Below are positions 1-56,007 of a stretch of 57,641 bases of DNA, one piece after another (position 1 is the first letter of the stretch; the number at the start of each line of letters is the position of its first letter). Source of the stretch: a virus (taxonomy: Duplodnaviria; Caudoviricetes); the IMG/VR virus record IMGVR_UViG_3300021438_000003, positions 1 through 57,641 of that record; one strand, written 5' to 3'. The notes under the pieces are model-generated. The model did not search any database. It worked only from the letters and a program-made list of their open reading frames with translations, and was not told the DNA's origin. A program made the position numbers and the translations under genes.

Positions 1-127
1 ATGATCGCACCAGCTCTATTGTCAGACGTTCTTTAGCAAGCATGTTATTGTGCGTATTAATATCGTATTCTTCAATGAATGAAGTTATTGGTTTATTTAG
101 TTCATTACATATCAAAAGCAGTCTACC
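1..127. repeat. Terminal direct repeat, left copy (identical to 57515-57641); circular-assembly overlap
   Basis: atgatcgcac...gcagtctacc occurs exactly at both ends. 127 bp equals a common assembler k-mer, and a gene reads through the junction. Unit genome is about 57,514 bp. Confidence 0.95.
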
Positions 128-295
128 AACACATATTCTATTGACCCCATGTTCATATTTAGCTAGCTGCTGGTGCGTAATTCCTGCTGCCTTAGCTAGC
201 TGCTGACGGCTTAAGCCTTTTTCTATTCTAAAGTCATGTATTCTAGAACCTACATGCTTGTCTATGTTTTTTATAAAGTCATTCTTTTTTGCCAT
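1..295 (-). CDS. XRE-family HTH transcriptional regulator, 5' part (continues across the junction to 57447; 120 aa total)
   Basis: ATG at 295 with GGAGGACT RBS. Translates MAKKNDFIKNIDKHVGSRIHDFRIEKGLSRQQLAKAAGITHQQLAKYEHGVNRICVGRLLLICNELNKPITSF..., an alphaproteobacterial/Rickettsia-type XRE signature. Confidence 0.9.
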   Translation of the reverse strand, partial: MAKKNDFIKNIDKHVGSRIHDFRIEKGLSRQQLAKAAGITHQQLAKYEHGVNRICVGRLLLICNELNKPITSFIEEYDINTHNNMLAKERLTIELVRS

Positions 296-320
296 TATAG
301 TCCTCCTTAAAATAATATTA

Positions 321-629
321 CTATATACCTGTCTTTCTATAAATCCTGTAACATTTATCGCTTGTGTTTATCTTGATATCAACCCCTACTATTTCACATA
401 GCCTGTTAATAATTTCCTCTACTACTTCCGCTTTATCCTTATAACTTGCGTTATTACGCTTATTATGTTCATCCATAATCAAACCAAGTGTAAGGGTAGC
501 TAAAGCTATCTGCTCAGTTGGAGTCATATTAAAAGCTACAATTCTTGATTTATTTCCGTCTTCTACGTTTATAATTGCTTTTTTATTACCATAGAGCAGT
601 CTTTCTATAAATCTTGTTATAATATCCAT
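321..629 (-). CDS. Hypothetical early protein
   Basis: 102 aa ORF, GAGGACTAA RBS, tightly packed operon. Confidence 0.75.
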   Translation of the reverse strand: MDIITRFIERLLYGNKKAIINVEDGNKSRIVAFNMTPTEQIALATLTLGLIMDEHNKRNNASYKDKAEVVEEIINRLCEIVGVDIKINTSDKCYRIYRKTGI

Positions 630-646
630 TTAGTCCTCTTTGTTTT

Positions 647-913
647 TTAATTAAAATTACTAAATCTTTTCTCTTCCATATTTTTATACGTATCACTGGT
701 AAAATCCTCATCCTTTATGATCCTGATAAAATCTTCCTTAACCTGTTCTCTCAATGCTCTAAATTCACCTTGTGTTGAACTATAGATGAAGTTAAGCACT
801 GCGTTTGATAAAAGCTCCATTCTTTTGAAATTGCTTACCATCTTGTAACTGATGCAGAATTTTCTAACTCCGTTTTCTTCTTTTTCCTCTATTATTATTG
901 TCGGGTTATCCAT
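647..913 (-). CDS. Hypothetical early protein (likely start MDNPT at 913)
   Basis: GAGGATTAAA directly upstream of ATG 913. Confidence 0.7.
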   Translation of the reverse strand: MDNPTIIIEEKEENGVRKFCISYKMVSNFKRMELLSNAVLNFIYSSTQGEFRALREQVKEDFIRIIKDEDFTSDTYKNMEEKRFSNFN

Positions 914-914
914 T

Positions 915-1127
915 TTAATCCTCATTTAATTCTTTAGATTTAATTTTCAGAGAGTTTTTAGCTAATTCCTTAAGCATTTTTTTAGTTTTCTTATCCGGCG
1001 CATCATTAATAAAATTCCATAAACTAGCAAGCAACATTGTAAAACTATCTTCGGCATCTACATTTTCGTATAATATACTAACTTTATCGTCTATTTTCTC
1101 TATTGTTATTATTTGTTTATCCGTCAT
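915..1127 (-). CDS. Hypothetical early protein (likely start MTDKQ at 1127)
   Basis: GAGGAC RBS; overlaps the upstream gene end. Confidence 0.7.
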   Translation of the reverse strand: MTDKQIITIEKIDDKVSILYENVDAEDSFTMLLASLWNFINDAPDKKTKKMLKELAKNSLKIKSKELNED

Positions 1128-1320
1128 TCTCAATGTCCTCTTTATCTGTTATTCTTAATAAACAATTATCATAATTATATTTTATCAACTTTTTAATCCT
1201 GTTTTCCAATCTGTTCTCATACATTTCTTTTATCTGTTCAGCTGTAAAACCGATTTTCATTAAATTTTTTGATTCATCCAGAAAAGATTTCATTTCTAAA
1301 TATATATCTTCTTTTTTCAT
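1117..1320 (-). CDS. Hypothetical protein
   Basis: 67 aa ORF, AGGACTAA RBS. Confidence 0.7.
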   Translation of the reverse strand: MKKEDIYLEMKSFLDESKNLMKIGFTAEQIKEMYENRLENRIKKLIKYNYDNCLLRITDKEDIENDG

Positions 1321-1326
1321 TTAGTC

Positions 1327-1557
1327 CTAATTGTTCTTTATATCTATTAAACTATCCATTCTACTTTTAACTATAATGAAACCTGGACGTAGTATAGAAT
1401 ACATGTTTTTTATACCTTGTATTCTCCTTCGCCTATTATGCTTAGCGCAAATAACTTCATGTTTTAATTTAAAACCTAATATTCTAACTTTATTTTCAAT
1501 TAAAAATTCCTGTTTTTCTTTACTTAAAAGGTCAAAAATCGGTAAATATGAAAGCAT
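1327..1557 (-). CDS. Hypothetical protein, NK[IV]R[IL] paralogue family
   Basis: FLIENKVRILGFKLK motif shared with 54943, 56988 and 57175 ORFs. Confidence 0.7.
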   Translation of the reverse strand: MLSYLPIFDLLSKEKQEFLIENKVRILGFKLKHEVICAKHNRRRRIQGIKNMYSILRPGFIIVKSRMDSLIDIKNN

Positions 1558-1770
1558 TTATTTTTTATCCTCGCTATAATAACTATCTATGATAAATCTT
1601 ATTTGTTCATGATCGGTTCTGTAATTATTCTTTGAATCCTGTTGTAATTTAGTTCTTACGTTATCATTAAAATTATAATTTGGTGTACCTATAGCAAAAC
1701 CAATAATGAATGAGATAATAACTGATATTACTGACCACATTATAATTAAACCTAAATCATTATTGTTCAT
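1558..1770 (-). CDS. Small single-TM membrane protein
   Basis: Hydrophobic LIIMWSVISVIISFIIGFAIG segment. Confidence 0.7.
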   Translation of the reverse strand: MNNNDLGLIIMWSVISVIISFIIGFAIGTPNYNFNDNVRTKLQQDSKNNYRTDHEQIRFIIDSYYSEDKK

Positions 1771-1952
1771 TTAAAATAATCCTCCCGCTCAAGTCTATCC
1801 ATTACCATATTTCTAATCAGCTCAAGCTGGTTATTAAAACATAACCATTCATGTTCAGGACTGGTTATATACTTATTGTGGAGCATTGATCTAACTGACA
1901 AATTAACGATAAATTCTACTGCATCCTCATATTGTTTATATATTTCGTTCAT
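1767..1952 (-). CDS. Hypothetical protein
   Basis: ATGA overlaps on both sides. Confidence 0.7.
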   Translation of the reverse strand: MNEIYKQYEDAVEFIVNLSVRSMLHNKYITSPEHEWLCFNNQLELIRNMVMDRLEREDYFK

Positions 1953-2206
1953 TTCCCATGCTCCATTTCCAGAACCTCATTAATGTCATGCTCAATTGTG
2001 GTTTTAAGATAAGCGCAGTATTCTTTCTTTTTATTTAATTCTAGATCAAAAAACCATTTACCAGCAGAGTTTTTATAGCAAATAAGTCTGTAGGACTCAG
2101 TATTGGTTTTTATTCTATCCATAAGCTTGTTTATTTCTTCTATACTGCCAGCTAGTGCAATAAAAGGAATAAGGATCATGGACATGGTTAATATAATGTT
2201 TTTCAT
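1949..2206 (-). CDS. Small exported protein (signal peptide)
   Basis: MKNIILTMSMILIPFIALA signal peptide; GGAGCAAGG upstream. Confidence 0.7.
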   Translation of the reverse strand: MKNIILTMSMILIPFIALAGSIEEINKLMDRIKTNTESYRLICYKNSAGKWFFDLELNKKKEYCAYLKTTIEHDINEVLEMEHGK

Positions 2207-2223
2207 TTCCTTGCTCCATAATA

Positions 2224-2325
2224 TTCACTTAACATTAAACGTAATTTTGTAAGGTTGGTATCTACATATTTATCCCGCCAGTTGTCAGTTACCAGCTCTA
2301 CAATTCTTTTTTCAAGTTCTGTCAT
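2224..2325 (-). CDS. 33-aa hypothetical peptide (not in ORF track)
   Basis: MTELEKRIVELVTDNWRDKYVDTNLTKITFNVK*; strong GGAGGACTAA RBS at 2328-2337. Confidence 0.55.
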
Positions 2326-2327
2326 TT

Positions 2328-2762
2328 TTAGTCCTCCATAGTTTTAAGCTGTTTAGCTAGTTTAATACATTCAAGTATTACATAATTAATATCCCTGTAT
2401 ACCTCATCACCGCATACTTCGAGTTTATCTTTTCTTAATTCTTCGCTCATACTAGGTATAAGATCATCAGCGTGCGCACAATCGAAACCAACCAGAAATA
2501 GTTTTAATTTATCATTACTATTATGCTCACCATCCAATATACCAGTAAAAGTAACTCCGCCGTGTACGTCAAATTTATCAAAAACATCATTTTCCTTACG
2601 GCTTTTATTATATAAAGGATGGTTTACAGGTAGGCTTACATAACCGCATAAATGTTTTAATTTTGGATGTCTTTTGATAACTATTGCATAACCAGTCTCA
2701 ACATTCATAAAGTGGTAGTGATCCAATTCAATTTCCCATTGTTTTTTATTGTTATCAGTCAT
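2328..2762 (-). CDS. Conserved phage protein, HxCGYV/DVHGG/GFDCAH type (putative metal-binding); likely start 2762
   Basis: HLCGYV...HP...DVHGGVTF...GFDCAHADD motifs are recurrent in phage early proteins; GGAGGACTG RBS before MTDNN. Confidence 0.8.
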   Translation of the reverse strand: MTDNNKKQWEIELDHYHFMNVETGYAIVIKRHPKLKHLCGYVSLPVNHPLYNKSRKENDVFDKFDVHGGVTFTGILDGEHNSNDKLKLFLVGFDCAHADDLIPSMSEELRKDKLEVCGDEVYRDINYVILECIKLAKQLKTMED

Positions 2763-2781
2763 TTTCAGTCCTCCTTTTTTA

Positions 2782-3021
2782 TCAATCATCATGTTTACTA
2801 CTAAAAATAATCTCATTTGTTTTTATATCTACAACCCGTATTTCATCATCAGTAGTATTTACTATCTTGTCATAATGATCCGAATTTAGGAATAGGTGAA
2901 AGTCAGTTAAGCTTGTGAATTCCAGATTTTCAAACTTTAACCCTGTTTTAGGTTCTATTACGCTAAGTTTATATTTAGGTTTTAAGTTTTCTTCTTTTAA
3001 TATTTCTTTAAATCTATTCAT
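2782..3021 (-). CDS. Hypothetical protein (likely start MNRFK at 3021)
   Basis: GAGGACTG RBS; the upstream part of the track ORF is occupied by the 3036..3215 gene. Confidence 0.7.
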   Translation of the reverse strand: MNRFKEILKEENLKPKYKLSVIEPKTGLKFENLEFTSLTDFHLFLNSDHYDKIVNTTDDEIRVVDIKTNEIIFSSKHDD

Positions 3022-3035
3022 AATTCCAGTCCTCA

Positions 3036-3215
3036 CTATATTGTTGATAAAACCCAAGTCATTGTGTTTGTTAACGCCAGTATACATAAGAATATCATCA
3101 TGACCTTGTCCCTTGGTATTCTAACATATATAACATTATCATTCTTAAAAGTTACATAAACGTATTTGGCAATTAATAAAAATGATGTAAGTATTACAAT
3201 TGATAAGCCGTTCAT
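3036..3215 (-). CDS. 59-aa two-TM membrane protein (not in ORF track)
   Basis: MNGLSIVILTSFLLIAKYVYV...VMMIFLCILALTNTMTWVLSTI*; AGGAGGACTAACA RBS. Confidence 0.65.
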   Translation of the reverse strand: MNGLSIVILTSFLLIAKYVYVTFKNDNVIYVRIPRDKVMMIFLCILALTNTMTWVLSTI

Positions 3216-3219
3216 GATG

Positions 3220-3726
3220 TTAGTCCTCCTTTATCAATTCCTTGATTCTGTTTATAATAGTGCTATTGTTACCAAAATAGTTTTCAAAATATCCAATACC
3301 GCTTTTAGCAAAGTTGGAGTGTTCGTCATAAGAACGATCAACCAGCAGCTGGTAAGCTTCAAGCTTATAAGTCATGTCCATACCAGCACCACCAAAAGAT
3401 AGTATTTCGTATTTATTACCAATGATATCAAAGTAAGTAAAAGGGATAAGATGGCATATAAGCGCAATATCCTCATCGAATGTAACAGGCTCGTAAGCGT
3501 AATTATACATTAAACATGCTTCTTCAACGTTACGTCTAGCGCAATCATACATTTCAGTTTCATCACTGTAATCATCAATATCAAGGTCAGCTAATTCTTC
3601 CTCTATTGCTTTCTCCGATACCATGAAATCATCGATGTGTTCTTCTATATGAAAATCAGGGATGAAATGCTTATTGTAAAAAGCTTCGCTGTGTATTCCA
3701 GATACTCTCTTAAATAATTTAGTCAT
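3220..3726 (-). CDS. Acidic hypothetical phage protein (LSFGGAGMD motif)
   Basis: 168 aa, very acidic N-terminal half; GGAGGACTA RBS. Confidence 0.8.
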   Translation of the reverse strand: MTKLFKRVSGIHSEAFYNKHFIPDFHIEEHIDDFMVSEKAIEEELADLDIDDYSDETEMYDCARRNVEEACLMYNYAYEPVTFDEDIALICHLIPFTYFDIIGNKYEILSFGGAGMDMTYKLEAYQLLVDRSYDEHSNFAKSGIGYFENYFGNNSTIINRIKELIKED

Positions 3727-3738
3727 GGTAGTCCTCCA

Positions 3739-3921
3739 TTAAATCTTTTTATAATTGAAAATATTTGCTACGTAATTTATATGCTTGCTCGTTGTGCGAG
3801 ACCAATAACCAAGTGTTTTGATTAGTCCGTTAACGTGATCTATTTCTGCGACTCTGGTGTTGTATGAGTATATAAATTCATTATCACATGAAAGATTTTT
3901 AGTGTATCTATCGAATTTCAT
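3739..3921 (-). CDS. Conserved small phage protein (YSYNT...WSRTTSKH)
   Basis: First gene after the leftward promoter; motif recurrent in phage early genes. Confidence 0.75.
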   Translation of the reverse strand: MKFDRYTKNLSCDNEFIYSYNTRVAEIDHVNGLIKTLGYWSRTTSKHINYVANIFNYKKI

Positions 3922-3969
3922 AATCAGTCCTCATTGTTTTTGTTTCAATTAACAGTTGCTCGTAAGCTG

Positions 3970-3998
3970 AATATAACCGCATGTTGTTAACGTGTCAA
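3970..3998 (-). promoter_or_regulatory. Sigma70-type leftward early promoter
   Basis: TTGACA (3998-3993)-17 nt-TATATT on the minus strand. Confidence 0.75.
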
Positions 3999-4098
3999 TA
4001 ACTAAAAATTATTTTTTATTACAAATAATAAAAGTGTGTTGTTAAGGTAACAGGTTTTTGTCCTTGTTTTATTCCATAACACCAAGTGGAGTAACGTT

Positions 4099-4328
4099 TA
4101 CTACCCTTTACTACCCTCCATACTACCCCTCTTACTACCCTTCTATCCCTTATATAATAAAGGATAGAAGGGTAAAGGTAGTAAGGTAGTATACTTTTTT
4201 TATAGGAGTTTGATAGAAAAAATAAAATAAAAAATTTATATAAACAATAGAAACGGCTTTACTACCTTACTACCTTACTACCCTAATACCTTGTAAGGCT
4301 TATATCCATTGGTGTTGAGGGGGTAGTA
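4099..4328. repeat. TACTACC iteron array with central hairpin; probable replication origin
   Basis: Forward copies at 4099, 4109, 4121, 4133, 4260, 4268, 4276; inverted GGTAGTA at 4177, 4185, 4322. Inverted repeat TACCCTTCTATCC...GGATAGAAGGGTA at 4136-4174. Confidence 0.75.
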
Positions 4329-4349
4329 AGCTTAAGGGAAACTGTAGTT

Positions 4350-5936: not shown

Positions 5937-6146
5937 ATGGATAAGGACATAGATAATGAGATCAACGACTTACTGATAGGGAAATATAATTATAAAGGTT
6001 ATGTTTTGTTATTAGAGGGTAATAAAGGGGGTTGGAAAAAAGGATATTGGAAGCTTGATAAACTTGATCTTTTAAAAGCAAGTAAGTTTTTATTACATTT
6101 AGATTTATCCGAACGAAGAGACTGCAAAAACAATATTGAAGAATAA
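5937..6146 (+). CDS. Hypothetical protein
   Basis: 69 aa ORF with AGGA RBS. Confidence 0.6.
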   Translation: MDKDIDNEINDLLIGKYNYKGYVLLLEGNKGGWKKGYWKLDKLDLLKASKFLLHLDLSERRDCKNNIEE

Positions 6147-6151
6147 GGTTA

Positions 6152-6670
6152 ATGAGTAAAAAACTGAAAAATGTTACAGGGTCAGAAAAGAAAGAAGTAG
6201 ATTTAGGTGGTCGACCTGAAATAGTTTTAACAGATGAACAAATATCAAGAGTAGAAACTTTAGCAAGCGTATTACGTGTAGAACAGATAGCAGATTACTT
6301 TGGTATATCTCATAAAACTTTCTATGAAATAATGAAAAGAGATGAGCGAGTTTCTACAAGCTATAAAAGGGGTAAAGCCGTTGCAATTGAGGGGGTTGCG
6401 AGCAATTTAATATTAAAATGTCACGCTGGTGACGTTCCCTCAATGATCTTTTATCTCAAAACTCAAGGTCGCTGGAAAGAGAATCATGATCAACCTGAGG
6501 TTAATGTTAATATTAACACATTAACAGACAACCAGAGAAGACAAAAAGAGATAGATATTAAACTCTACGATAAATATCGTCGAGACATGGGTTTTGGTAT
6601 GGATAGCGAGACTGCGATTGATGCTGAGTTTGTGGTGGAAGAGACTAAGTTATTGAAAGATGATGAGTGA
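6152..6670 (+). CDS. terS: Terminase small subunit
   Basis: GGRP...EQIADYFGIS..TFY HTH and GD..SMIFYLKTQGRWKE motif; upstream of terL. Confidence 0.8.
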   Translation: MSKKLKNVTGSEKKEVDLGGRPEIVLTDEQISRVETLASVLRVEQIADYFGISHKTFYEIMKRDERVSTSYKRGKAVAIEGVASNLILKCHAGDVPSMIFYLKTQGRWKENHDQPEVNVNINTLTDNQRRQKEIDIKLYDKYRRDMGFGMDSETAIDAEFVVEETKLLKDDE

Positions 6671-6950
6671 AATAGAATTAAAATATCACTGGGTAGTAGA
6701 TGAGGAGGATAAAAAAGACCTTATATATGTAGATAGAGATACATTACTTGATTATGAAATAATAGATAATCTATTTTAGCAATTAAAATTTGTTTTAAAC
6801 GATCATAAAAATACTCATACAGGGATTATATGCTTTCATTTAGCGGGTTACGTTGCACAGAAGACAGCTGAGATATTTGATATAATAAATACTAATGAAA
6901 GGATAAAATATACTGTGTCCAAGTTAGAGCTTAAAAAGAATAATGATTAA
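6663..6950 (+). pseudogene. 95-codon ORF interrupted by one in-frame TAG (6777-6779)
   Basis: MSEIELKY...IIDNLF*QLKFVLNDHK...KLELKKNND*; overlaps both neighbours like an intact gene. Confidence 0.55.
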
Positions 6951-7161
6951 GATAAATAGAATATACACAGAGATAGAAACCGAGAACGCACTTGATAAAG
7001 AGTATAGGGATTATTACGTAAAAAATAGACGGGTATTTTATATAGATGATGAAGCGTTAAATAGATTTAAAGAAGCCATGCAAACTAAAAGACAAATAGA
7101 AGCTATAGATAAGATTAATAATATAGTTAAAAATGGTTATGTTTCACAACACTGGCGTTAA
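6943..7161 (+). CDS. Hypothetical protein
   Basis: 72 aa ORF. Confidence 0.6.
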   Translation: MIKINRIYTEIETENALDKEYRDYYVKNRRVFYIDDEALNRFKEAMQTKRQIEAIDKINNIVKNGYVSQHWR

Positions 7162-7188
7162 TATATGTGAGGATTAAACCCTAACTAT

Positions 7189-9171
7189 ATGATTTTCACA
7201 CTAAAAGAAAGAGCTGAGCAAAGTTTATATTCATTCTTCATACAAGCGTGGCCGATTATTGAAGGACACAGCAAGTTTGTAGATGAATGGTTTTTAGAGG
7301 TGATTGCTGAGCATCTTGAGCTGGTTTATAAGAGAGAGATTAAGAATTTATTAATAAATGTTCCCCCTCGCGTCGGTAAAACTAGTTTGATAAGCATTGC
7401 GTTCCCTGCATGGGTTTGGATTAAGGATGCTACAGAGAAGATAATCAGTGCATCATGCACCAACTCTTTATCTTTAGACATTGCTGATAAGAGCAGGCTT
7501 CTAATACAAAGCAGCTGGTATCAGGAGAACTGGGGGCATCTGTTCAAGATAAGAATAGATCAGAACTCCAAGAGTTATTTTGCTAATGATAAACTTGGTT
7601 ATCGTATATCTACCTCAGTCGGATCATCTATTATCGGTCGTGGTGGTTCAATTCAAATTTGTTTAACAGCAGATACATTTATAGATACTAATAAAGGGAG
7701 TATTACAATAGGTGAAATTGTTAATGATAATCTTGATGTAAGAGTTTTAAGTTACAATCATGAGTTAAATATTACAGAGTATAAGCAAATAAAAACTTAT
7801 TATAAACATGAAGGTAAATTAATTTATAGAATACTTATCGCTAGTTGTTTAGAAGAAAAACCATTTTTTATTACAACTTTAAAATGTACGGAAGAGCATC
7901 CTATATTTGTAATAGGTAAAGGTTATATAAAAGCAAAAGAGATATTAGTAGGTGATAAATGTTTGTTTTTATCTAATAATATAAATGAAGTAACTGTTCG
8001 TTCAATTGTTTTAACTGATGATAATCCTGACTATGTTTATAACTTAGAGATAAAAGACAATAATAATTACTTTGCTAATAATATTCTTGTTCATAATTGC
8101 GACGATCCTAACGTTGTTGGTGGTGAATCAGAGGTTGTAAGAGATAGCGTTAATAACTGGTGGTCGATGAAGTGGTATAACAGGCTTAACGATATTCAGA
8201 ACGACAGAAGAATATTAGTGCAGCAAAGAGGTGATGAGAAAGATGTGTCTGGCAGTGTAATAGCTAACGACATTAATAATGAATGGGTAAAGCTTATACT
8301 ACCTTTAGAGTATGAATCACAATGCAAACGCCCAACTGTTCCCTTGTTCTGGACACGTGGGAAACCTTGGGAAGATAAGAGAACAAAAGACGGCGAATTA
8401 CTTACTAATCGATTGACAATTGATGATGTTAATAAGCTTAAGAAAGAATTGGGCTCTTATGGTTATGCTGCTCTTTACCAGCAAAGACCAGCTCCTCTTG
8501 ATGGAGGTATAATTAAGAAGCATTGGTTCAAGTTATACAAGTGGGGATTGCCGCAGATAGATTATGTTATCCAGAGCTGGGATACTGCCCTTACTGCTAA
8601 CGATGATAGTGCTTATTCTGCCTGTAGCACATGGGGATTATTCCAGGATAGATATGATAATACAAATGTGATACTATTGTCATGCTGGCGAGGCAGACTT
8701 GAATATCCAGAACTTAGGGAAAGGATTAAAAGGCTCGCTGATAACTATATGGATGTTGGTGAGATAGTTAATAAAAGGTTAATATTTAAGAAACCTGATA
8801 AAATAGTAATAGAGGCAAAGGCGTCTGGTGAGCCGTTGTTGCAGGATTTAAAAAGAGCTGGTGTTTACGGGCATCCTTTCATACCTAACAAGCATGGTGA
8901 TAAAACCCAGCGTGTTAGATTGATAACGCCGCTAATTGAGGCGGGTGTAGTATGGATGCCTGCGCAAGCTAATAATCCTGATCGGATGGAGGATTTTGCG
9001 GATGAGTTTGTTAACGAAGTTAGTTACTTTCCAAATCCAAGAAGTTTGGATTATACTGATACGTTAACGCAGGCATTGATAGTACTTAGAGATGGTAGTA
9101 GTATTAAGAATCCTAAAGACTATTATGAGCCTGATGATATGCGAGAAGAAACACAAGCATGGTATAGATAA
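7189..9171 (+). CDS. terL: Terminase large subunit with intein
   Basis: Walker A NVPPRVGKT; Walker B IQI/CDDP split by an intein; YQQRP; nuclease SWDTA, IEAKASG, DYTD. Confidence 0.95.
   Translation: MIFTLKERAEQSLYSFFIQAWPIIEGHSKFVDEWFLEVIAEHLELVYKREIKNLLINVPPRVGKTSLISIAFPAWVWIKDATEKIISASCTNSLSLDIADKSRLLIQSSWYQENWGHLFKIRIDQNSKSYFANDKLGYRISTSVGSSIIGRGGSIQICLTADTFIDTNKGSITIGEIVNDNLDVRVLSYNHELNITEYKQIKTYYKHEGKLIYRILIASCLEEKPFFITTLKCTEEHPIFVIGKGYIKAKEILVGDKCLFLSNNINEVTVRSIVLTDDNPDYVYNLEIKDNNNYFANNILVHNCDDPNVVGGESEVVRDSVNNWWSMKWYNRLNDIQNDRRILVQQRGDEKDVSGSVIANDINNEWVKLILPLEYESQCKRPTVPLFWTRGKPWEDKRTKDGELLTNRLTIDDVNKLKKELGSYGYAALYQQRPAPLDGGIIKKHWFKLYKWGLPQIDYVIQSWDTALTANDDSAYSACSTWGLFQDRYDNTNVILLSCWRGRLEYPELRERIKRLADNYMDVGEIVNKRLIFKKPDKIVIEAKASGEPLLQDLKRAGVYGHPFIPNKHGDKTQRVRLITPLIEAGVVWMPAQANNPDRMEDFADEFVNEVSYFPNPRSLDYTDTLTQALIVLRDGSSIKNPKDYYEPDDMREETQAWYR
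7660..8097 (+). mobile_element. Mini-intein (146 aa, no homing endonuclease) in TerL Walker B
   Basis: Begins CLTADT, block B CTEEHP, block F VYNLEI, ends ILVHN followed by +1 Cys. Confidence 0.92.
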
Positions 9172-9273
9172 AAGAAAACCCCTTAATGATGGAGGACTAA
9201 CAACAAGATTAAGGGGAAATGAGCAAATAATTGAAAAGTTGTTTTTAGGAAAACAATAAAACTAAAAGACAAC
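9171..9273 (-). ncRNA. Candidate ~100-nt antisense small RNA with anti-RBS loop
   Basis: Own promoter at 9280-9308; no ORF; 3' hairpin CCCCUUAAU-[CUUGUUGUUAGUCCUCCAUC]-AUUAAGGGG followed by UUUUCUUU. Confidence 0.6.
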
Positions 9274-9279
9274 AGAGAT

Positions 9280-9308
9280 ATAATAACTATTAATATTTTT
9301 GTTGTCAA
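9280..9308 (-). promoter_or_regulatory. Sigma70-type promoter antisense to the late operon
   Basis: TTGACA (9308-9303)-17 nt-TATTAT. Confidence 0.7.
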
Positions 9309-9311
9309 TTA

Positions 9312-11687
9312 ATGAAAAATAAAGAAAGGCTACGGCTTAACAAAACTAGCAGGCAATCAACTCTTGATAACGATCTAGCTAGCATTGATCCCAACGTTAA
9401 CTTGGATGTTATTAATAAAGTTAATGATTTGGAAGACGGATCGAGTGTTTATGAGATAGGTGACCCTGAACAGGATAAACCAAAGGACGACAAATTCCAT
9501 TCGAACCTTGCTGTTAATATGAAAGACGGCACGCTTAAGAAGCTTGCTGAGTTTGTACTTGAGGCTATTGATGAGGATATAGAAGCGAGACAACCTTGGC
9601 TTGATCTTCATAATAAGCTTAAAAAATATACCGGTTACGATGGTGAAGATTTAACTAGTATCCCTTTCTCACAAGCTTGTCGTACTGTAGATAGTACATT
9701 ATCGACAGCTGTGATTCGTTTCTGCGCAACAACTGTAGCTGAGATGTTACCAGAAAGCGGCCCAGCTGGTTTTAAAATATTTGGACAGGAAACGGAAGAG
9801 CTTGAGTACATATCTAAAGTAAGGAGTCAGTGGCTTAATTATTATCTAACTGTTAAAGACGCCGAATATTATAAAGACTATGAGAAGTTTATATATTACT
9901 TGGGTTTTTACGGCACAATCATTCGTAAGGTTTATTATGATAATATCCTTAAAATGCCTCTATCAAGGTTCATCTTACCTGAGAACTTCCTTGTTAATAT
10001 AGATTGCAGTTCTATTCTCGACTCAGATAGATTAACACATATTCTAAAACTATCTGCTCGTGAAGTATTACTTAATCAGAAGAATAAAATATATCGTGAT
10101 GTTGAACTACCTTATCTAAAGGTTGGAGCAAATGAGAATGATAATAGCTATAACGATGATGAGGAGGATACCAAGACATCAAACAGTGTTATTGACCTTG
10201 ATGTTTATACGCAGCGTTCACTCCATGATGTTTATGAGTCCCATATATATTTAAACCTTGAGACGTTTGAGGATAGTTACAATTCCGATGAGATAACGGA
10301 GGTGGCTAAACCTTATATAGTTACAATAGATAAGGAAAGCAGAGAGATACTAAGGATCGAGCGTAACTGGAAAGAAACAGATAAGGAGTTCAAGAGACGT
10401 AAGTTCTTCGTTGCATATCAGTATTACACTGGGTTTGACATATGGGGTCAAGGACTGGCCAGAATGGCGGGTAATGGGGCGATAACAGTTACCAACATGC
10501 TCCGTCAGACTATTGATGCAGCGACCTATCAGAATTTACCGGCCGGTTTTATTCAAAAAGGAACAAGCAAGCAGCAGATAACTGATATAACCCTTGGTGC
10601 TGGTCAATGGAAGTTTCTAGACGCAGCTGGTGATATAAGACAGATGTTTGCCCCTCTTCCAGCAAACGGACCATCACAGGCATTAATGCAGTTAAGACAG
10701 GAAATAATAGGTCAGATGCAGGACCAGTTATCTACCAGTGAACTTGGGATGATGGATAGCAAGGAGGATATCCCGACAGGTACGGCTATTGCGTTCTTGC
10801 AGGAAAAGAACAAGATACAGTCTAAAGTCCAGAAGTCCATTCATAATTCATTCTCTCAGGAGCTAAGACTTCTTGATGAGATATTCAAGGAAGTAATAGA
10901 TCGTGAGGAGTTTTTTGTTAACGGCGAGGAATATATTATCACAAGGGATCATTATGTTGATTCCGTTCAGTTAGTACCAGTATCCGACCCTTCTATTAAC
11001 TCTACTATTGAACGGGTAATGAAAGCGGAAGCTGTGTTTCAAACAGCAATGCAGCTACCAGATAAGGTTAACGCTGTTGAAGCTATTAAAATGATATTCA
11101 AGGCGCAAGGCTTGCCGCAGGATGAGATAGAGAGCTTATTGATGCAGGACGAGCAGCAGGAGATAGAGCCTCGCGATCCAATAACCGAAAACATGGACTT
11201 GATGCAAGGTAAACCTGTGAAAGCAGGTATTGAACAGAACCATGATGCGCATATTGTTGTTCATTCTGGTGTTGATAATGAAGCATCAGCTGCGCATATT
11301 CAAGAGCATATGGCTCTCAAGTTCATGCTCCAGATGCAGAATGAGATGGGTATAGATTTAAGTCAGGTTGATCCAAATGACAGGGAAGCCCAAGACATGT
11401 TAGCACTAAAAGCAGCAGAAGCAATAACTGCACTTGGACTTGGTAATAATGTCGATGAGGATAAACAACTTGACCCTAACGAGTTAATTAGAGCTGAAAT
11501 CGAACAGAAAAGAGAGGAAAGCCTGATTAGAAAACAGATTGCAGATGATCAATTAGAAGCTGACGCGTTTAAAACACAGCTGCACTTTGAAGAGACCAAG
11601 CAGAAGCTTAAACTTGAGAAAGAGAAAGCATTGCTTGAAGCTAAAATTGAAATGGAGAAATTAAGAAGTAAATTTGGTGGATTATAA
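9312..11687 (+). CDS. Portal protein
   Basis: 791 aa after terL; FHSNLA, RKVYYD, QTIDAATYQNLPAGF and DPITEN...KA..EQNHDAHI motifs typical of P22-like/podoviral portals. Confidence 0.9.
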   Translation: MKNKERLRLNKTSRQSTLDNDLASIDPNVNLDVINKVNDLEDGSSVYEIGDPEQDKPKDDKFHSNLAVNMKDGTLKKLAEFVLEAIDEDIEARQPWLDLHNKLKKYTGYDGEDLTSIPFSQACRTVDSTLSTAVIRFCATTVAEMLPESGPAGFKIFGQETEELEYISKVRSQWLNYYLTVKDAEYYKDYEKFIYYLGFYGTIIRKVYYDNILKMPLSRFILPENFLVNIDCSSILDSDRLTHILKLSAREVLLNQKNKIYRDVELPYLKVGANENDNSYNDDEEDTKTSNSVIDLDVYTQRSLHDVYESHIYLNLETFEDSYNSDEITEVAKPYIVTIDKESREILRIERNWKETDKEFKRRKFFVAYQYYTGFDIWGQGLARMAGNGAITVTNMLRQTIDAATYQNLPAGFIQKGTSKQQITDITLGAGQWKFLDAAGDIRQMFAPLPANGPSQALMQLRQEIIGQMQDQLSTSELGMMDSKEDIPTGTAIAFLQEKNKIQSKVQKSIHNSFSQELRLLDEIFKEVIDREEFFVNGEEYIITRDHYVDSVQLVPVSDPSINSTIERVMKAEAVFQTAMQLPDKVNAVEAIKMIFKAQGLPQDEIESLLMQDEQQEIEPRDPITENMDLMQGKPVKAGIEQNHDAHIVVHSGVDNEASAAHIQEHMALKFMLQMQNEMGIDLSQVDPNDREAQDMLALKAAEAITALGLGNNVDEDKQLDPNELIRAEIEQKREESLIRKQIADDQLEADAFKTQLHFEETKQKLKLEKEKALLEAKIEMEKLRSKFGGL

Positions 11688-11827
11688 ATTTAATTATAGA
11701 ACAGTTAATATTTATAAATGTAATAAATGTGGCTATGAAAACGAATCAGTTTTTGCCATACGTACTATCCAGATTTTATTATGTGGAGAATGTAATTGTT
11801 ATTTTAATAATAGGGAGGATAAAAATA

Positions 11828-12025
11828 ATGAAAGACCATGAGTATATATTAACAGAGATTAACAAAAACATTAAGGATACATTGGAAAGTATCGAGAATC
11901 GTATTGTTAGCGGCGGCATACAGACAATGGAGGATTACAAGTTTAATCTTGGTATCAGGTATGCACTAACAAAACTTGAAGATTATATAAAACTAGTAAG
12001 CAGGGAGGACGGGATTAATGAGTAA
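11828..12025 (+). CDS. Small conserved head-module protein (likely start MKDHE at 11828)
   Basis: GGGAGG RBS; GG...MEDYK...G...AL pattern typical of the gene between portal and GroES. Confidence 0.7.
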   Translation: MKDHEYILTEINKNIKDTLESIENRIVSGGIQTMEDYKFNLGIRYALTKLEDYIKLVSREDGINE

Positions 12026-12425
12026 TTATTACATGCAAGTAGATTTGTCAGACAATGACGAGATCGGTATTGATCTGGATACTTTTAATAAAGAAGAGGA
12101 GTTAAAACTTTTTGAAGATTGTACTATTAAACCGACTGACATTTTAATCAGATTATATATTCAACCTAAGAAAACAAAAGGCGGGATAATTCTTGATAAC
12201 ACCAAGGATATTTTCCATGAGATAGTAGGTTACGTTGCTAAAATCGGCAAGTGTGGGTTCAGTGGTGAGCGTTATAAGGACTGGGGGCATTGGTATAAAG
12301 TAGGTGATTGGGTTGCGTTCCCAAGACACGCAGGTATTAGATATACTTATAAGAAATTGCCTGTGTTCTCTATTGTAGATGATGCGCCGATGATGGTAGT
12401 ACCAGACCCAAGATACGTTAAATAA
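12018..12425 (+). CDS. GroES/Cpn10-like co-chaperonin
   Basis: P...ILIR...KTKGGIIL...GYVAKIG...KVGDWVAF. Confidence 0.85.
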   Translation: MSNYYMQVDLSDNDEIGIDLDTFNKEEELKLFEDCTIKPTDILIRLYIQPKKTKGGIILDNTKDIFHEIVGYVAKIGKCGFSGERYKDWGHWYKVGDWVAFPRHAGIRYTYKKLPVFSIVDDAPMMVVPDPRYVK

Positions 12426-12435
12426 TAGGTAGCAA

Positions 12436-13476
12436 ATGAAAGACAATACAACATACGGCATCGATCCTAGTGATGATACTGCTGCTGTTTTAGCTGAGAT
12501 TGAGAAAAACGTTCAGGAAGAACAGGAAGCAGGCACTTTTGGAAAAGATGACCATAAAAAAGACTATATCGATCCAAGAGTTGATGGACTTGAGAATCTG
12601 GAAGACCTTGAGCAGGCAAATATTGCTGATGATGAGGTAGTAGAAGAGAAAAAAGAAGCTAAAAAGGAGCTTAAGGAAGAAGAAAAAGAGGAAGAACCTA
12701 GCGAACTTGATCTTTTTAGGGAAAAATACTACAAGGAAAAGCAAAAACGCAAAGGTGTTTATGCTGATCGTCAGAAATTAGAACAGGAAAACGAAGAACT
12801 AAGAAAGTATTTACAAAATACTATCAGTTCTAATGCTGAGTTATATAAAAATAATCTAGTTAGCGACCTTGAGAAGATAAAGGGGCTTAGAAAACAGGCA
12901 TTACTTGGTGAAGATCCTGATTTACTTATTGAAGCAGACGATTTATACTATAAAGCGTTAATGAAACTTAACGAATTCGAAGCTAGAAATGGTAAAATAG
13001 ACACAACTGAGGAAACGGAACAGGAAGAACAGCAGGATATACCGGATAGAGCTGAGAGAATTGATGAAGAGGTACTAAATAACGCTAAGGAATGGTTGAA
13101 TAACAGACCTGAGCTTATTGAGGGTTCAAAACAGTATAATCCTCGTATTCAGAAAGCTGTTGCAACGTTTATAGAGGAGTTTGATGGTGAGTTAAGACGC
13201 CAAGGTAGAGCTGACGATATCCTAAGCGAGGATTATCTTGACGTTCTTGATGAATTTATCGACACAATCAAGGTAGAGAAGCCTAAATCAGGTTATAAGA
13301 CATCAAGTGTTGGTAGTGTTCGTAACAATTTCTCATCCAGTGGTGGTAATACTAGTACGATTCAGGTTAAACTTGACTCATGGGAAAAGGATTATGCTAA
13401 AAATCTTGGACTTAGTGAGAAAGAGTACTTAAAGGCTAAAATAGAAGACATTAAAGAATCAAGAAGAGGTAGATAA
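12436..13476 (+). CDS. Putative capsid scaffolding protein
   Basis: Acidic coiled coil; C-terminal AKNLGLSEKEY; position in head module. Confidence 0.7.
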   Translation: MKDNTTYGIDPSDDTAAVLAEIEKNVQEEQEAGTFGKDDHKKDYIDPRVDGLENLEDLEQANIADDEVVEEKKEAKKELKEEEKEEEPSELDLFREKYYKEKQKRKGVYADRQKLEQENEELRKYLQNTISSNAELYKNNLVSDLEKIKGLRKQALLGEDPDLLIEADDLYYKALMKLNEFEARNGKIDTTEETEQEEQQDIPDRAERIDEEVLNNAKEWLNNRPELIEGSKQYNPRIQKAVATFIEEFDGELRRQGRADDILSEDYLDVLDEFIDTIKVEKPKSGYKTSSVGSVRNNFSSSGGNTSTIQVKLDSWEKDYAKNLGLSEKEYLKAKIEDIKESRRGR

Positions 13477-30145: not shown

Positions 30146-30331
30146 TTATTCCTCTTCATCGTCTCTGTTTAAATGATTTATCCATTGTGATAAAAGGAAA
30201 ACAATAAGTAAGTTAAAAGGTAAACATATTGCTCCTATAACAGAGCCAAAACAATTATAAGTCCCCACTGTAGCGAATACCATTGCTATTATAAACACAA
30301 TAAAGGCTAATATTTTTCTAATTATTTTCAT
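30146..30331 (-). CDS. Two-TM small membrane protein
   Basis: Two hydrophobic helices; GAGGACTAA RBS. Confidence 0.7.
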   Translation of the reverse strand: MKIIRKILAFIVFIIAMVFATVGTYNCFGSVIGAICLPFNLLIVFLLSQWINHLNRDDEEE

Positions 30332-30353
30332 TTTTAGTCCTCTTTAAATAATA

Positions 30354-30971
30354 TTATTTGGATTTTAATTTTTTAGTTAAACTAATTGAATAACTATACA
30401 GCAATTGATCTTCATCAATTAATTTATAAATTATAGGCATATCAATATCTTTATACCTTTTACATTCTTCATGAGAATTAGATGTGGATTTAATAAATAC
30501 TTCTTTTGTATTCAAATCGATTTCTAAAACGTCATTAAAGCAATACTTAAATGAATATTCATGTTTTGGGTTATCAAGTGTAGCTATGATTTTATTGTTA
30601 TCCCAAGATTTTATATAATAATTTACTTCATAAGAGGTAAGATAATAATCAAGTTTTATACCATAATCTCGTAACACTGTTTCATGGATAGTACAGTCTT
30701 TGGTATCTTTATAGCAGTTTATTTGTACACTATGTGGAAAATTATAAACTCGATTACAGGTATCTAATTGTTCAGTACTTTGTTTACTTATGTGCTTCCA
30801 AACACCAGTAGCTGATACATAAGATGGGTTATTTTTTGGAATAATATTAAATTTCATATTTGCATTAAATATTATTAGAGGTCGTGTTTTATTAAATAAA
30901 ACTAAATCTTCTAATTTTTCACAAGATGCTAATATTAACATTAAAGGTATAAATATTATAATTTTCTTCAT
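30354..30971 (-). CDS. Cys-rich lipoprotein (superinfection-exclusion candidate)
   Basis: MKKIIIFIPLMLILASC lipobox; counter-oriented after the ejection genes. Confidence 0.75.
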   Translation of the reverse strand: MKKIIIFIPLMLILASCEKLEDLVLFNKTRPLIIFNANMKFNIIPKNNPSYVSATGVWKHISKQSTEQLDTCNRVYNFPHSVQINCYKDTKDCTIHETVLRDYGIKLDYYLTSYEVNYYIKSWDNNKIIATLDNPKHEYSFKYCFNDVLEIDLNTKEVFIKSTSNSHEECKRYKDIDMPIIYKLIDEDQLLYSYSISLTKKLKSK

Positions 30972-30973
30972 AT

Positions 30974-31180
30974 CTACTCCCCCTTATCTTTAATTATTTC
31001 CCATAAGATAGCAGCTGTTTTAAAATCTTTAGCTTGGTATAGAACATCGCTAATATAACTGAGTTCTATTGCGGATAATTTTTTAAAAAATCTTGTTTCC
31101 TCATCAGATAGTTCGCCTGTTTCTTTTAATTTATCAATCAGACAAAATATTTTCTGCGTTTTGGTTAATATGTAATTCAT
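30974..31180 (-). CDS. Hypothetical protein
   Basis: GGAGGACTG RBS. Confidence 0.7.
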   Translation of the reverse strand: MNYILTKTQKIFCLIDKLKETGELSDEETRFFKKLSAIELSYISDVLYQAKDFKTAAILWEIIKDKGE

Positions 31181-31232
31181 AAGTTCAGTCCTCCTTTTAG
31201 TTGAAATACAAAAACAGATATATAATTATTTT

Positions 31233-31354: not shown

Positions 31355-31458
31355 TATAAGTGTTTAGACATAACATTTATTGTTAATTAAATAAAAAACA
31401 GATAGTCCCACCTATCATATTAAAAGGTTATATCTTGGTTAAAGATATAACCTTTTTT
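31355..31458 (+). ncRNA. Second candidate ~100-nt small RNA
   Basis: TTGATT-17-TATAGT promoter (31321-31349); hairpin GATAG-TCCCAC-CTATC; ends in a strong terminator; no ORF. Confidence 0.5.
31422..31458 (+). terminator. Intrinsic terminator (possibly bidirectional)
   Basis: AAAAGGTTATATCTT-GGTTA-AAGATATAACCTTTT-TT. Confidence 0.8.
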
Positions 31459-31514: not shown

Positions 31515-31697
31515 ATGAAAAATATTTTTAATTTAATAGCATCTAATGCCAGTTTTATTAAAAACATCTTCATTCTCATGATATTAGGTAGACTATTATT
31601 TATTGAGACAGATAATCTTTTATTAATTGCAGAAATAGTCGGTTCACTTTGTGTTATGATGACTGATTTATGCCCTAACCCTTATTTGGATCATTAA
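31515..31697 (+). CDS. Small membrane protein (possibly a truncated remnant)
   Basis: TTGATT-16-TATAAT promoter at 31463-31490; hydrophobic ORF; hydrophobic fragments continue downstream in other frames. Confidence 0.45.
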   Translation: MKNIFNLIASNASFIKNIFILMILGRLLFIETDNLLLIAEIVGSLCVMMTDLCPNPYLDH

Positions 31698-31901
31698 TGT
31701 ATTATTTATCTTTAATAATAAAACTGATGATTATCACTATATTTTATAATACTTAAACATAAGTATTTCTTAAAGAAAAAACCCGATTATAAATTAATAA
31801 CTTATATTTTAATAGTTAATGGTATAATTATACCTGTTATTAATTTAAGATTAGAGGAAGAACAGAAAGAAAATTATGCAAATTTCATAAATATTTTTAT
31901 T

Positions 31902-32306
31902 TTATTTATTGGTCTTCTTTGACTTAAGACCTTCTTTTACATCTTCTTTTATTCTTTCTAATTTTTTACCAACTGAAACTTCATTATACGGAAATTTAGG
32001 TACGTATTTATCTATAAAATCAAATCTCTGCTTCACCTTTTTACGCTGATCTTTTTCCTTATTGTATTTATTATCAAAATACTCGGAAATATAACGTCTC
32101 ATGTGAGCATCGAGTTTATCATCTTCACTTTCTTTCTCATCCTCTTCTTCGCTCTCATCTTCGTCATAGTTATTTTCTTCCTTATAATTACCTTTAACTA
32201 CCTTACGAATGTGAGAAGGGTTTTTAAGCAAGAGGTTGACATCGACTTCATTTAGGTTGTAAGGAGTCTTTTTACCTTTAAATGGAACTTTAGATACTGA
32301 TTTCAT
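31902..32306 (-). CDS. Highly charged hypothetical protein
   Basis: Acidic tract flanked by Lys-rich segments. Confidence 0.65.
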   Translation of the reverse strand: MKSVSKVPFKGKKTPYNLNEVDVNLLLKNPSHIRKVVKGNYKEENNYDEDESEEEDEKESEDDKLDAHMRRYISEYFDNKYNKEKDQRKKVKQRFDFIDKYVPKFPYNEVSVGKKLERIKEDVKEGLKSKKTNK

Positions 32307-32385
32307 AAGGTTTTTGATGATAATGTATTAAAATTGTAATATATTATAAATTAAATTTTTAATCAATAATTTACTTGAGTTACAT

Positions 32386-32937
32386 ATGAAACTAAAAGTA
32401 ACAGGAAATTCTGACGATATAGAACTCTATAAACTGTTGTTATATAATATATACAATGATATGTATAACCCTTACTGGAGTAGAAATTTGACTAATAATG
32501 ATTTAGTTAAACGATTTAAACAATATCATTACGAATTAGAAGCATTATCAAATAAATCAGAATATTTATTAAAACAATTGGAAGAAGGTAAAAAGTCTTT
32601 TTGGCAAAACAAAGATTTTTTTTGTTTCTTAAATGAAGATGAACAAAAAATAGAGATAGAACGTTTAAACAGTAAAGACTCGGAAGAGTACGAACCTTAT
32701 TATCAAAAGTTACATATAATAGAAGAACAATATTCAAGCAAACATCGTGTTTCAATAGAAAAATTATCTGAAATTCAAAACTTTTTAAATACTAAATCTC
32801 ATTGTGATGGAGAAAAAAATATTTATAAAGTTATAAGAGAAAAATCATCATTTATTGAAAAAAGTGTTCTACATGATACTTACATATTTATTGAAGATGA
32901 TATAGCTTGTTGTGGTGAAACAATAACATATGAGTAA
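32386..32937 (+). CDS. Hypothetical helical accessory protein
   Basis: 183 aa; ends EDDIACCGETITYE. Confidence 0.7.
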   Translation: MKLKVTGNSDDIELYKLLLYNIYNDMYNPYWSRNLTNNDLVKRFKQYHYELEALSNKSEYLLKQLEEGKKSFWQNKDFFCFLNEDEQKIEIERLNSKDSEEYEPYYQKLHIIEEQYSSKHRVSIEKLSEIQNFLNTKSHCDGEKNIYKVIREKSSFIEKSVLHDTYIFIEDDIACCGETITYE

Positions 32938-32939
32938 AT

Positions 32940-35248: not shown

Positions 35249-35526
35249 TTAATAATTTACCTTTTCCTAAATATATAACTTTTGAGAAATGGTCAGCAGA
35301 GCTTATAAAAAATTATAAAAATGAGCGTTTACCAGTACCAAGAGCAGGTGAAGAATGGCAGGAATGGGCTAATAAAATAGCTGGTGTTGGCGTATTTAGA
35401 ACAAATAGTATACCATCGGCTACAATTACAAAAGGTTCTAAAAAAGCTGATCAGTTTAAAAACTGGGACGACTGGGCAAAAGCCGTGTATATTGTTATGA
35501 TTAACGCTAGAGGTAAAAAGAAGTGA
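35245..35526 (+). CDS. Small Trp-rich tail protein
   Basis: WQEWA...F.NW.DWA pattern after the nozzle gene. Confidence 0.65.
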   Translation: MINNLPFPKYITFEKWSAELIKNYKNERLPVPRAGEEWQEWANKIAGVGVFRTNSIPSATITKGSKKADQFKNWDDWAKAVYIVMINARGKKK

Positions 35527-36641: not shown

Positions 36642-36643
36642 TT

Positions 36644-40712: not shown

Positions 40713-40726
40713 TCGATTTTATAAAT

Positions 40727-43127: not shown

Positions 43128-43131
43128 TTAT

Positions 43132-44078: not shown

Positions 44079-44079
44079 T

Positions 44080-46063: not shown

Positions 46064-46095
46064 ATATTTATCCTGTTGTTTTCAGTTTCTTTTTT

Positions 46096-48230: not shown

Positions 48231-48231
48231 T

Positions 48232-50962: not shown

Positions 50963-50984
50963 TTAATTAGTCCTCCCTTAAATG

Positions 50985-52752: not shown

Positions 52753-52770
52753 AATAGTCCTCCTTGTTGT

Positions 52771-55716: not shown

Positions 55717-56007
55717 TTAGTCCTCCTTTTTTGTAATAGTTTCTTCATCAAATTTTGCATTTAATTCAATTATTATAGGTAAAAAAACCTTTAGTTCGTT
55801 AAGATCGAATGCGTTATCTATTAAAAGTCGAAGCTGGATACTCAATAACTCATCATTTTTAAATATATAACCCTCTTTATTATCCTCAATCTCTTCCTTA
55901 GTCATGATGCTAAAGTTTTTATTACCATCATGAACTAGGAAAGTATGGTTATTAGGGTTTTCAAAACAGATATAGAGTGTTTTAGGCTCTTTTATCAATT
56001 CACTCAT
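55717..56007 (-). CDS. Hypothetical protein
   Basis: 96 aa in packed operon. Confidence 0.7.
   Translation of the reverse strand: MSELIKEPKTLYICFENPNNHTFLVHDGNKNFSIMTKEEIEDNKEGYIFKNDELLSIQLRLLIDNAFDLNELKVFLPIIIELNAKFDEETITKKED

Follow-up and report, generated by a model that had tools for sequence, protein, structure and literature searches.

What is the role of the 140-nucleotide (nt) gap (9172-9311) that separates the rightward genes terL (7189-9171) and portal (9312-11687) in the phage record IMGVR_UViG_3300021438_000003? The record, analysed over its whole length of 57,641 base pairs (bp; hereafter the window), is that of a complete virus with direct terminal repeats and ~32% G+C. On its minus strand the gap carries a predicted promoter, the template of a predicted RNA of ~100 nt (98-111 nt in relatives) and a terminator hairpin whose oversized loop holds UUAGUCCUCC. 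This is the complement of GGAGGACTAA, a tag found in the ribosome binding sites (RBSs) of leftward early genes. Judged from its sequence, the element is a real, conserved and previously uncatalogued feature with the anatomy of a stand-alone small RNA (sRNA) gene, and RNAs of both strands may matter. On balance it probably codes a trans-acting anti-Shine-Dalgarno sRNA that would occlude the tagged ribosome sites of early genes. An earlier note on this DNA had proposed such an sRNA. Comparison with relatives supports part of this proposal, a conserved minus-strand RNA gene with a loop constrained to mirror the tag, while a less probable plus-strand reading of the same hairpin is its main rival.

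The candidate sRNA gene

The predicted promoter is of the sigma-70 type, with two hexamers spaced within the 16-18 nt characteristic of this class (Table 1). It matches the consensus at 11 of 12 positions, in agreement with the minus-strand TTGACA-17-TATTAT promoter described in the earlier note. It is the top-scoring promoter of the region 6000-13000 and the single TTGACA-N16-18-TAnnAT match of the whole window, where one match is expected by chance (73 of 100 shuffled sequences have at least one). Transcription is predicted to start at the conserved G at 9273, 7 nt past the -10 hexamer. The RNA would begin with a stem-loop followed by an A/U-rich linker, which might serve, for example, chaperone binding, and would end in the terminator hairpin. 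The latter has the features of an intrinsic terminator on the minus strand, a 9-bp stem with 4 G-C pairs followed by TTTTCTTTT. A standard terminator scan, which accepts loops of 3-8 nt, missed it because its 20-nt loop is atypically large. Hairpin, U-tract and loop have the coordinates and sequence first reported for them.

The gap hairpin looks like a genuine phage terminator with an enlarged and constrained loop, since a leftward terminator at 51339-51310 (minus strand) has the same stem style (CCCCTTAA), there with a 6-nt loop and 8 Ts. Hairpins matching the 51310-51339 terminator are present in the relatives G001 and G002 (L043, L045). A promoter-like TTAACA-18-TATAAT site is found after it, at 51224.

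The predicted RNA contains neither ATG nor GTG. A 41-codon hydrophobic frame that begins with a TTG in the -35 box was considered as a minus-strand small protein or type I toxin and rejected: it has no Shine-Dalgarno sequence, and in relatives its length ranges from 17 to 60 codons and its frame changes. The ~100 nt described as free of an open reading frame (ORF) thus hold no conserved one. A small plus-strand gene behind the Shine-Dalgarno sequence of the loop was discarded as well, as there is no start codon at RBS spacing and the 3-8-codon frames that follow are not conserved. The possibility that the promoter region is an operator common to other promoters was dismissed because no related-looking second copy of its repeat was detected at up to 4 mismatches. 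The variable positions of this inverted repeat remain purines, able to pair with TTT on the plus strand. Note that the 30 nt before the portal ATG lack a Shine-Dalgarno sequence and that a strong plus-strand hairpin (9268-9306) lies ahead of this codon. In distant relatives the terL stop codon overlaps the portal ATG, which suggests translational coupling.

Table 1. Coordinates of the candidate sRNA gene and of the tagged ribosome binding sites in the window.
Feature	Position	Strand	Remarks
-35 hexamer TTGACA	9303..9308	-	invariant in 9/9 family members
-10 hexamer TATTAT	9280..9285	-	17-nt spacer from -35
5' stem-loop (GUUGU...ACAAC)	9238..9273	-	begins at predicted +1; folds
A/U-rich linker	9217..9237	-	unpaired in folds
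Terminator hairpin	9179..9216	-	9-bp stem, arms 9216-9208 and 9187-9179; 20-nt loop 9207-9188
Anti-tag core UUAGUCCUCC in loop	9191..9200	-	complement of GGAGGACTAA; invariant in 9/9 members
U-tract UUUUCUUUU after hairpin	9170..9178	-	plus-strand side without T-tract
Inverted repeat overlapping promoter	9268..9306	+	plus-strand hairpin ending 5 nt before portal ATG
Tagged RBS, exact, 12 nt complementary to loop	3220..3229	-	gene start 3215; ranked first, -23.3 kcal/mol
Tagged RBS, exact, 12 nt complementary to loop	2328..2337	-	gene start 2325
Tagged RBS, 1 mismatch (last base), 11 nt complementary to loop	3728..3737	-	gene start 3726
Tagged RBS, exact	50967..50976	-	gene start 50962
Tagged RBS, exact	55717..55726	-	gene start 55714
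Tagged RBS, 1 mismatch	297..306	-	gene start 295
Tagged RBS, 1 mismatch	630..639	-	gene start 629
Tagged RBS, A-to-G, still wobble-pairs with loop	2765..2774	-	gene start 2762
Tagged RBS, 1 mismatch	30334..30343	-	gene start 30331
Tagged RBS, A-to-G, wobble-compatible	31185..31194	-	gene start 31180
Tagged RBS, 1 mismatch	52754..52763	-	gene start 52752
GAGGACT-core RBS	3926..3932	-	first gene of leftward operon, start 3921
GAGGACT-core RBS	3028..3034	-	gene start 3021

The tag of the leftward early genes

At up to one mismatch the window has 12 copies of the tag; 100 shuffled sequences average 2.51 (maximum 9), and none reaches 12. Eleven copies precede an ATG of the minus strand by 0-5 nt and form RBSs of leftward early genes; the twelfth is the hairpin loop. 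The shorter GAGGACT motif has 16 sites where 3.26 are expected: 13 are located 0-5 nt before the ATG of minus-strand genes, one is in the loop and two are intragenic. Nine tagged genes belong to the first leftward operon (298-3932). In RNA the tag reads GGAGGACUAA, a Shine-Dalgarno core (GGAGG) with a private ACUAA extension, placed 0-5 nt before ~13 leftward early starts. An explanation of its TAA as the mere stop codon of the upstream gene was rejected, as just 3 of the 11 tagged RBSs fit it.

The loop matches listed in the earlier note are correct: 12 nt at 3218-3229 and 2328-2339, 11 nt at 3729-3739 and 10 nt at 50967-50976 and 55717-55726. The loop is also, as claimed there, the only exact copy of GGAGGACTAA that is not followed by a start codon. 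The note had expected the tagged genes at the top of a ranking of start regions; the eight best of 96 start windows by loop-duplex energy (-17.8 to -23.3 kcal/mol) are indeed all tagged minus-strand genes. At -12 kcal/mol or below there are 32 start windows; 200 shuffled loops give 12.2 on average (maximum 24), and 9% of 1750 intragenic controls pass this threshold. The loop core is unpaired in the fold of the window RNA, is the same in all nine family members (see below) and has RBS matches of 10-12 nt, the properties of a predicted seed of a trans-acting sRNA.

The tagged genes lie within a genome organized in leftward and rightward blocks. The leftward ones (1-3921, 30146-31180 and 38926-57641) code small unknown proteins together with lysis and replication proteins (helicase-primase, DNA polymerase, exonuclease and helicase), while packaging and virion genes occupy the rightward blocks (4768-30144 and 31515-38896). 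No phage RNA polymerase was detected among the ten large proteins scanned. The tagged genes code small proteins, mostly without family. Two classes of RBSs are present: GGAGGACT(A/G)A and its variant GAGGATTAA on leftward early genes, and an AGGT/AGGTAA type that serves the rightward structural genes and some replication genes and is the sole class in sister clades.

A promoter-like TTGACA-17-TATATT site (11/12 matches) at 3970-3998 on the minus strand immediately precedes the first of the tagged leftward genes (start 3921) and is likely the early leftward promoter. Between the divergent gene blocks, at 4080-4330, two TACTACC(C/T)-type repeat arrays in opposite orientation border an AT-rich stretch and may represent iterons of a replication origin or some other array for protein binding. 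The small leftward island 30146-31180 has two tagged genes and a third one (30357-30971, minus strand) that codes a protein of 205 amino acids (aa). The latter is probably the LysE-type translocator family match obtained among the small-protein set, an unusual cargo for a lytic phage, and the search for relatives recovered just three, with 80-93% identity. Between this island and the rightward gene starting at 31515, a perfect hairpin of 11-12 bp (31425-31453) has T-tracts on either strand and is a candidate bidirectional terminator.

Conservation, strand and competing explanations

Portal-based searches gave 32 loci in viral contigs and 18 loci in metagenome contigs. All loci with a portal 83-97% identical (L002-L007, L050, L051 and L052) bear the element directly upstream of portal. 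The L051 element has the sequence of that of L005, so that the family comprises nine distinct elements (window, L007, L050, L052, L003, L004, L002, L005 and L006). At loci with a portal identity of 73% or less, terL abuts portal or is separated from it by an unrelated short spacer (25/31, 8/11 and 4/4 of those inspected in three sets), and the 70-73% clade has no terL-portal gap and almost no GGAGG. An exact scan of viral contigs for the promoter pattern recovered the same six relatives and two unrelated contigs; the metagenome scan added L050-L052. A portal protein search identified further relatives at 83-89% identity (P0006-P0021), followed by a gap down to 73%, at the protein level only. 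Scans with P0059 and P0021 revealed no new element-bearing locus. Region 8600-9900 had no blastn match in 50,697 phage records, and tblastn with terL retrieved only distant terminases (<40% identity), including those of Roseobacter, Paracoccus and Pelagibacter phages.

The anatomy of the element is conserved. The -35 and -10 hexamers with their 17-nt spacing, the 10-nt loop core and a T-rich tail after the hairpin are kept in all nine elements, the tail also in members with a different upstream gene. The stem has at least five forms with compensating changes: CCCCTTAAT, CCCCT[TC]AATATT, CCCTTGATGT, CCCCATGTT and an 11-bp form in L052. In a covariance-model alignment 97.4% of the cells are paired and three of the nine pairs changed on both sides (shuffle controls 0/500, 5/500 and 3/500). 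Loop flanks and loop length (13-20 nt) vary between members while the core is fixed; selection therefore acts on just those ten loop bases that are complementary to the RBS tag. The hairpin at +1 is present in 8 of 9 minimum-energy folds, with inner stems that differ between subgroups. Over 9155-9379, wastewater contigs of related phages differ at 2-6 positions per ~200 nt, compared with 31/336 in the flanking terL piece, and the gap is thus better conserved than the adjacent coding sequence.

The element travels with the portal side. Its upstream neighbour is terL itself, terL plus ~60 nt (L004) or an additional small ORF. The junction between terL and the element is variable: some relatives (L005 2135-3852, L006 2105-3860) have a terL of 516-520 aa, compared with 660 aa in the window, and a separate ORF of 55-91 aa between terL and the element, while L004 has the ~60 extra nt instead (upstream of 3876).

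Could the element be an ordinary terminator or the relic RBS of a lost gene, whose CCUCC loop would match every RBS? GGAGG is a generic Shine-Dalgarno core, the terminator at 51339-51310 shows that the stem style is not particular to the gap, and one consensus promoter is expected by chance in a genome of this size. Such an origin is nevertheless highly improbable. The match extends over the full 10-mer with its ACTAA extension, for which a base-composition estimate gives a chance of ~1e-5 in a 20-nt loop, and the 10-mer is invariant in nine members whose stems covary. These members are not near-clonal (their portals are 83-97% identical and their stems differ), none has a plus-strand start codon at RBS spacing, and promoter and terminator are conserved together.

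Tag and loop co-occur in genomes. The large element-bearing records G001, G002 and G003 have 13, 14 and 20 tag sites at up to one mismatch, compared with 2, 1 and 5 for the reversed-pattern control. Two element-bearing fragments have 4 sites (G004, 25.6 kb; control 0) and 1 site, the loop itself (G005, 14.5 kb; control 4). In five records without the element there are 1-3 tag sites (controls 2-9); relatives that keep the tag and lack the loop, which the earlier note had named as evidence against its proposal, were thus not seen. In an unbiased 7-mer count upstream of candidate starts, GAGGACT is the top RBS-specific G-rich 7-mer in 4/4 element-bearing genomes, while 3/3 genomes without the element have no private G-rich tag, only AGGTAAA. 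The joint presence and absence sustains one part of the claim that loop and tag co-evolved; the other part, a clade in which both have changed, has no instance among the relatives compared. The four element-bearing genomes have 85 RBS-context sites within two mismatches of the tag, 72 of them on the early strand. At position 7, C-to-T substitutions number 24 against 6 C-to-G/A, and at position 9 there are 10 A-to-G against 6 A-to-T/C. Substitutions in the extension thus weakly favour changes that pair with the loop, a trend confounded by transition bias and common ancestry.

The association with the tag also bears on a role in cis alone. Antisense RNA or transcriptional interference from the minus strand at the terL-portal junction would control the ratio of portal to terminase or the time at which late expression begins, with the early RBS match being secondary. 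Over 9171-9273 the RNA would pair perfectly with the late transcript, and its promoter opposes late transcription and overlaps the portal start region. Phage cis-antisense RNAs such as lambda OOP and P22 sar are well known. However, 39 nt separate the end of the predicted RNA from the portal ATG, so that the RNA cannot cover the portal start. A cis-acting RNA needs no particular loop sequence, yet the sole invariant block of the hairpin is the 10-mer of early RBSs, while stems drift, and relatives without the element are also without the tag. We consider a purely cis-acting RNA very unlikely.

The strand is indicated by several features. Promoter and T-tail, both kept in all nine members, are meaningful for the minus strand alone. 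In L003 and in L052 the terminator stem contains one minus-strand U:G pair that would become a C-A mismatch on the plus strand; no pair working only on the plus strand was seen in the terminator stem of the nine members. The 5' hairpin is more stable on the minus strand in 6/9 members (e.g., L002, -9.5 vs -2.4 kcal/mol), an advantage attributed to G:U pairs, in which base composition may have a part.

The main rival, which we regard as unlikely, is that a plus-strand hairpin in the late terL-portal mRNA displays the tag GGAGGACUAA as a decoy, binding or processing site. Candidate factors would be a RegB-like endoribonuclease, a RegA- or CsrA-like repressor, or the 30S subunit in standby for portal. 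The hairpin is computed to be more stable on the plus strand in 7/9 members. A standby role is consistent with the lack of a Shine-Dalgarno sequence before the portal ATG and with the plus-strand hairpin ahead of it, whose variable bases are purines opposite TTT. Against it, 112 nt and two hairpins separate the loop Shine-Dalgarno sequence from the portal ATG.

As for processing, T4 RegB acts with ribosomal protein S1 at the strong site GG*AGRAYARAA, is able to cut unpaired GGAG in a small RNA, and spares most middle and all late mRNAs, according to the sections of the review drawn on here (PMC3014915). The tag with its usual A-rich 3' context (e.g., GGAGGACTAAA) fits 10/11 positions of this consensus; position 8 is always T, not A. 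The likeness to that system, as those sections present it, lies in early mRNAs being marked at the Shine-Dalgarno by an extended motif that leads to selective early shut-off. The difference is that the T4 tag reader is a protein nuclease while the one proposed here is an RNA loop. A RegB system was rejected, as a six-frame search of the genome with PF10715 found no RegB homologue at E-values up to 1. CsrA-type proteins bind GGA motifs of mRNA, as stated in the part of the source used (PMC4894983). No RNase or RNA-binding family is present among the first 25 of the 26 Pfam families matched by 62 small proteins; since most of these proteins are without family, an unrecognised tag-reading factor is possible. 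Known CsrA sites are in small loops and CUAA is not part of the CsrA motif. A plus-strand function would, moreover, leave the promoter, the minus-only T-tract of 9/9 members and the two U:G pairs as coincidences.

Proposed mode of action and relation to known systems

In the trans-acting sRNA model, host RNA polymerase would start a minus-strand non-coding RNA at the consensus-type sigma-70 promoter and end it at the intrinsic terminator. The oversized terminator loop would expose UUAGUCCUCC and form 10-12 contiguous bp with GGAGGACUAA. The anti-Shine-Dalgarno of the ribosome is not known to pair beyond the GGAGG core, and so the RNA should beat 30S subunits at tagged sites only; AGGT-type sites of late structural genes would be left unaffected. 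The outcome would be a selective repression of tagged early translation, as a pulse or a shut-off, possibly accompanied by mRNA decay. The matching TTGACA-17-type promoters fit transcription of both the RNA and its targets by the host polymerase. Because its promoter type is that of the candidate early promoter at 3998, the sRNA would be made early and accumulate, leading to a delayed, selective shut-off of immediate-early genes. Later, rightward late transcription through the locus would interfere with the sRNA promoter and generate a perfect complement of the RNA. In this scheme transcription, timing, direction of effect and cofactors (a chaperone, an RNase) are what we infer. The roles suggested in the earlier note, in timing the early-to-late switch or in holding a quiescent state, are conjectural. 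It is possible, although somewhat doubtful, that the 10-nt tag and the loop of one sRNA terminator form a private orthogonal translation code for protein-free immediate-early shut-off in a lytic phage.

A number of points weigh against this sRNA. The regulatory logic is not obvious if the RNA and its targets are made simultaneously. Promoter use and the host 16S tail are assumed. An alphaproteobacterial or Rickettsiales host gained no support from two scans of genome contigs, with OMP and with portal, which found nothing, and no tRNA genes were found in the window. A search of sequencing runs gave eight wastewater 'RNA-Seq cDNA' metagenome runs from two studies, available as assembled contigs and sharing at most 0.20 of the sampled words. 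In four of them compared with the window, contigs of related phages span the gap; as these carry no information on strand, ends or level, they speak neither for nor against expression. Hairpins fold on either strand, and the plus-strand stability of the terminator hairpin counts here as well. The whole-gap fold z-score is -6.28 for the plus and -4.15 for the minus strand, the plus-strand segment including the promoter inverted repeat, which is outside the minus-strand RNA. This repeat pairs better on the plus strand via G:U, and a promoter alone would not require all of the 27 invariant bases found around it. The U/G-rich composition of the minus strand may account for some of the greater stability of the 5' hairpin there, and CCUCC is partly paired with 2-3 loop bases in some members. 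Finally, tag and loop show a single presence/absence pattern, probably the result of one gain in one clade, and the missing clade with both changed belongs to the same side of the balance.

The element has partial counterparts among known RNAs. The c4 RNA of P1/P7 is processed from the operon of its single target, icd-ant, and has an immunity role in a temperate phage. It is an antisense RNA whose complementary loops pair around the RBS and block translation of the phage gene, in the passages of the review used here (PMC12197685). Like c4 as described there, the gap RNA is phage-encoded and its loop is complementary to RBS regions of its predicted targets. It differs in that it lies in the late region, 5 to >40 kb from the targets, with a promoter and a terminator of its own, and in that it presents one loop to ~13 (window) to ~20 (G003) predicted unrelated targets with a common tag. 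The cuckoo/CcsR (alpha-r14) RNAs of Alphaproteobacteria are chromosomal and have 2-4 adjacent hairpins, each with the loop CCUCCUCCC, in the portion of the publication consulted (PMC4615179). A fixed C/U-rich anti-Shine-Dalgarno-like loop motif on variable stems is shared with them; the gap element is, however, one phage hairpin with UUAGUCCUCC, lacks CCUCCUCCC and is not a member of the family as that portion defines it. In RepG of Helicobacter pylori a C/U-rich seed in the terminator loop pairs with a G-rich element of an mRNA leader, as given in the excerpt relied on (PMC8295292). The predicted seed of the gap RNA is likewise in the loop of a terminator hairpin. RepG is host-encoded and targets the G-repeat of one operon leader, and there is no sequence relationship between the two. 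The C-rich-loop sRNAs of Firmicutes (Staphylococcus aureus RNAIII hairpins, RsaE) pair with the Shine-Dalgarno of several mRNAs; they are host-encoded and use short UCCC seeds against generic Shine-Dalgarno sequences, unlike a private 10-nt tag. The whole window has no Rfam hit at gathering thresholds. In E-value mode the best match of the gap, Ref84, is at chance level (21.6 bits vs a gathering threshold of 52, E 1.1). No published phage sRNA against a common tag on the phage's own early RBSs was found in the literature covered, which for PMC12197685 leaves out its table of 38 uncharacterised sRNAs.

Phages are known to time their gene expression mostly at transcription, by sigma factors, new polymerases and antiterminators. 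At the post-transcriptional level, the early shut-off known so far depends on a protein, T4 RegB. A switch made of RNA alone and reading a private Shine-Dalgarno extension on an early gene set would, if true, introduce a new principle of design. It would give a reason for the two classes of ribosome sites kept by the phage and would provide a compact, portable and orthogonal tool for translational control, made of a 10-nt tag and a 100-nt RNA.

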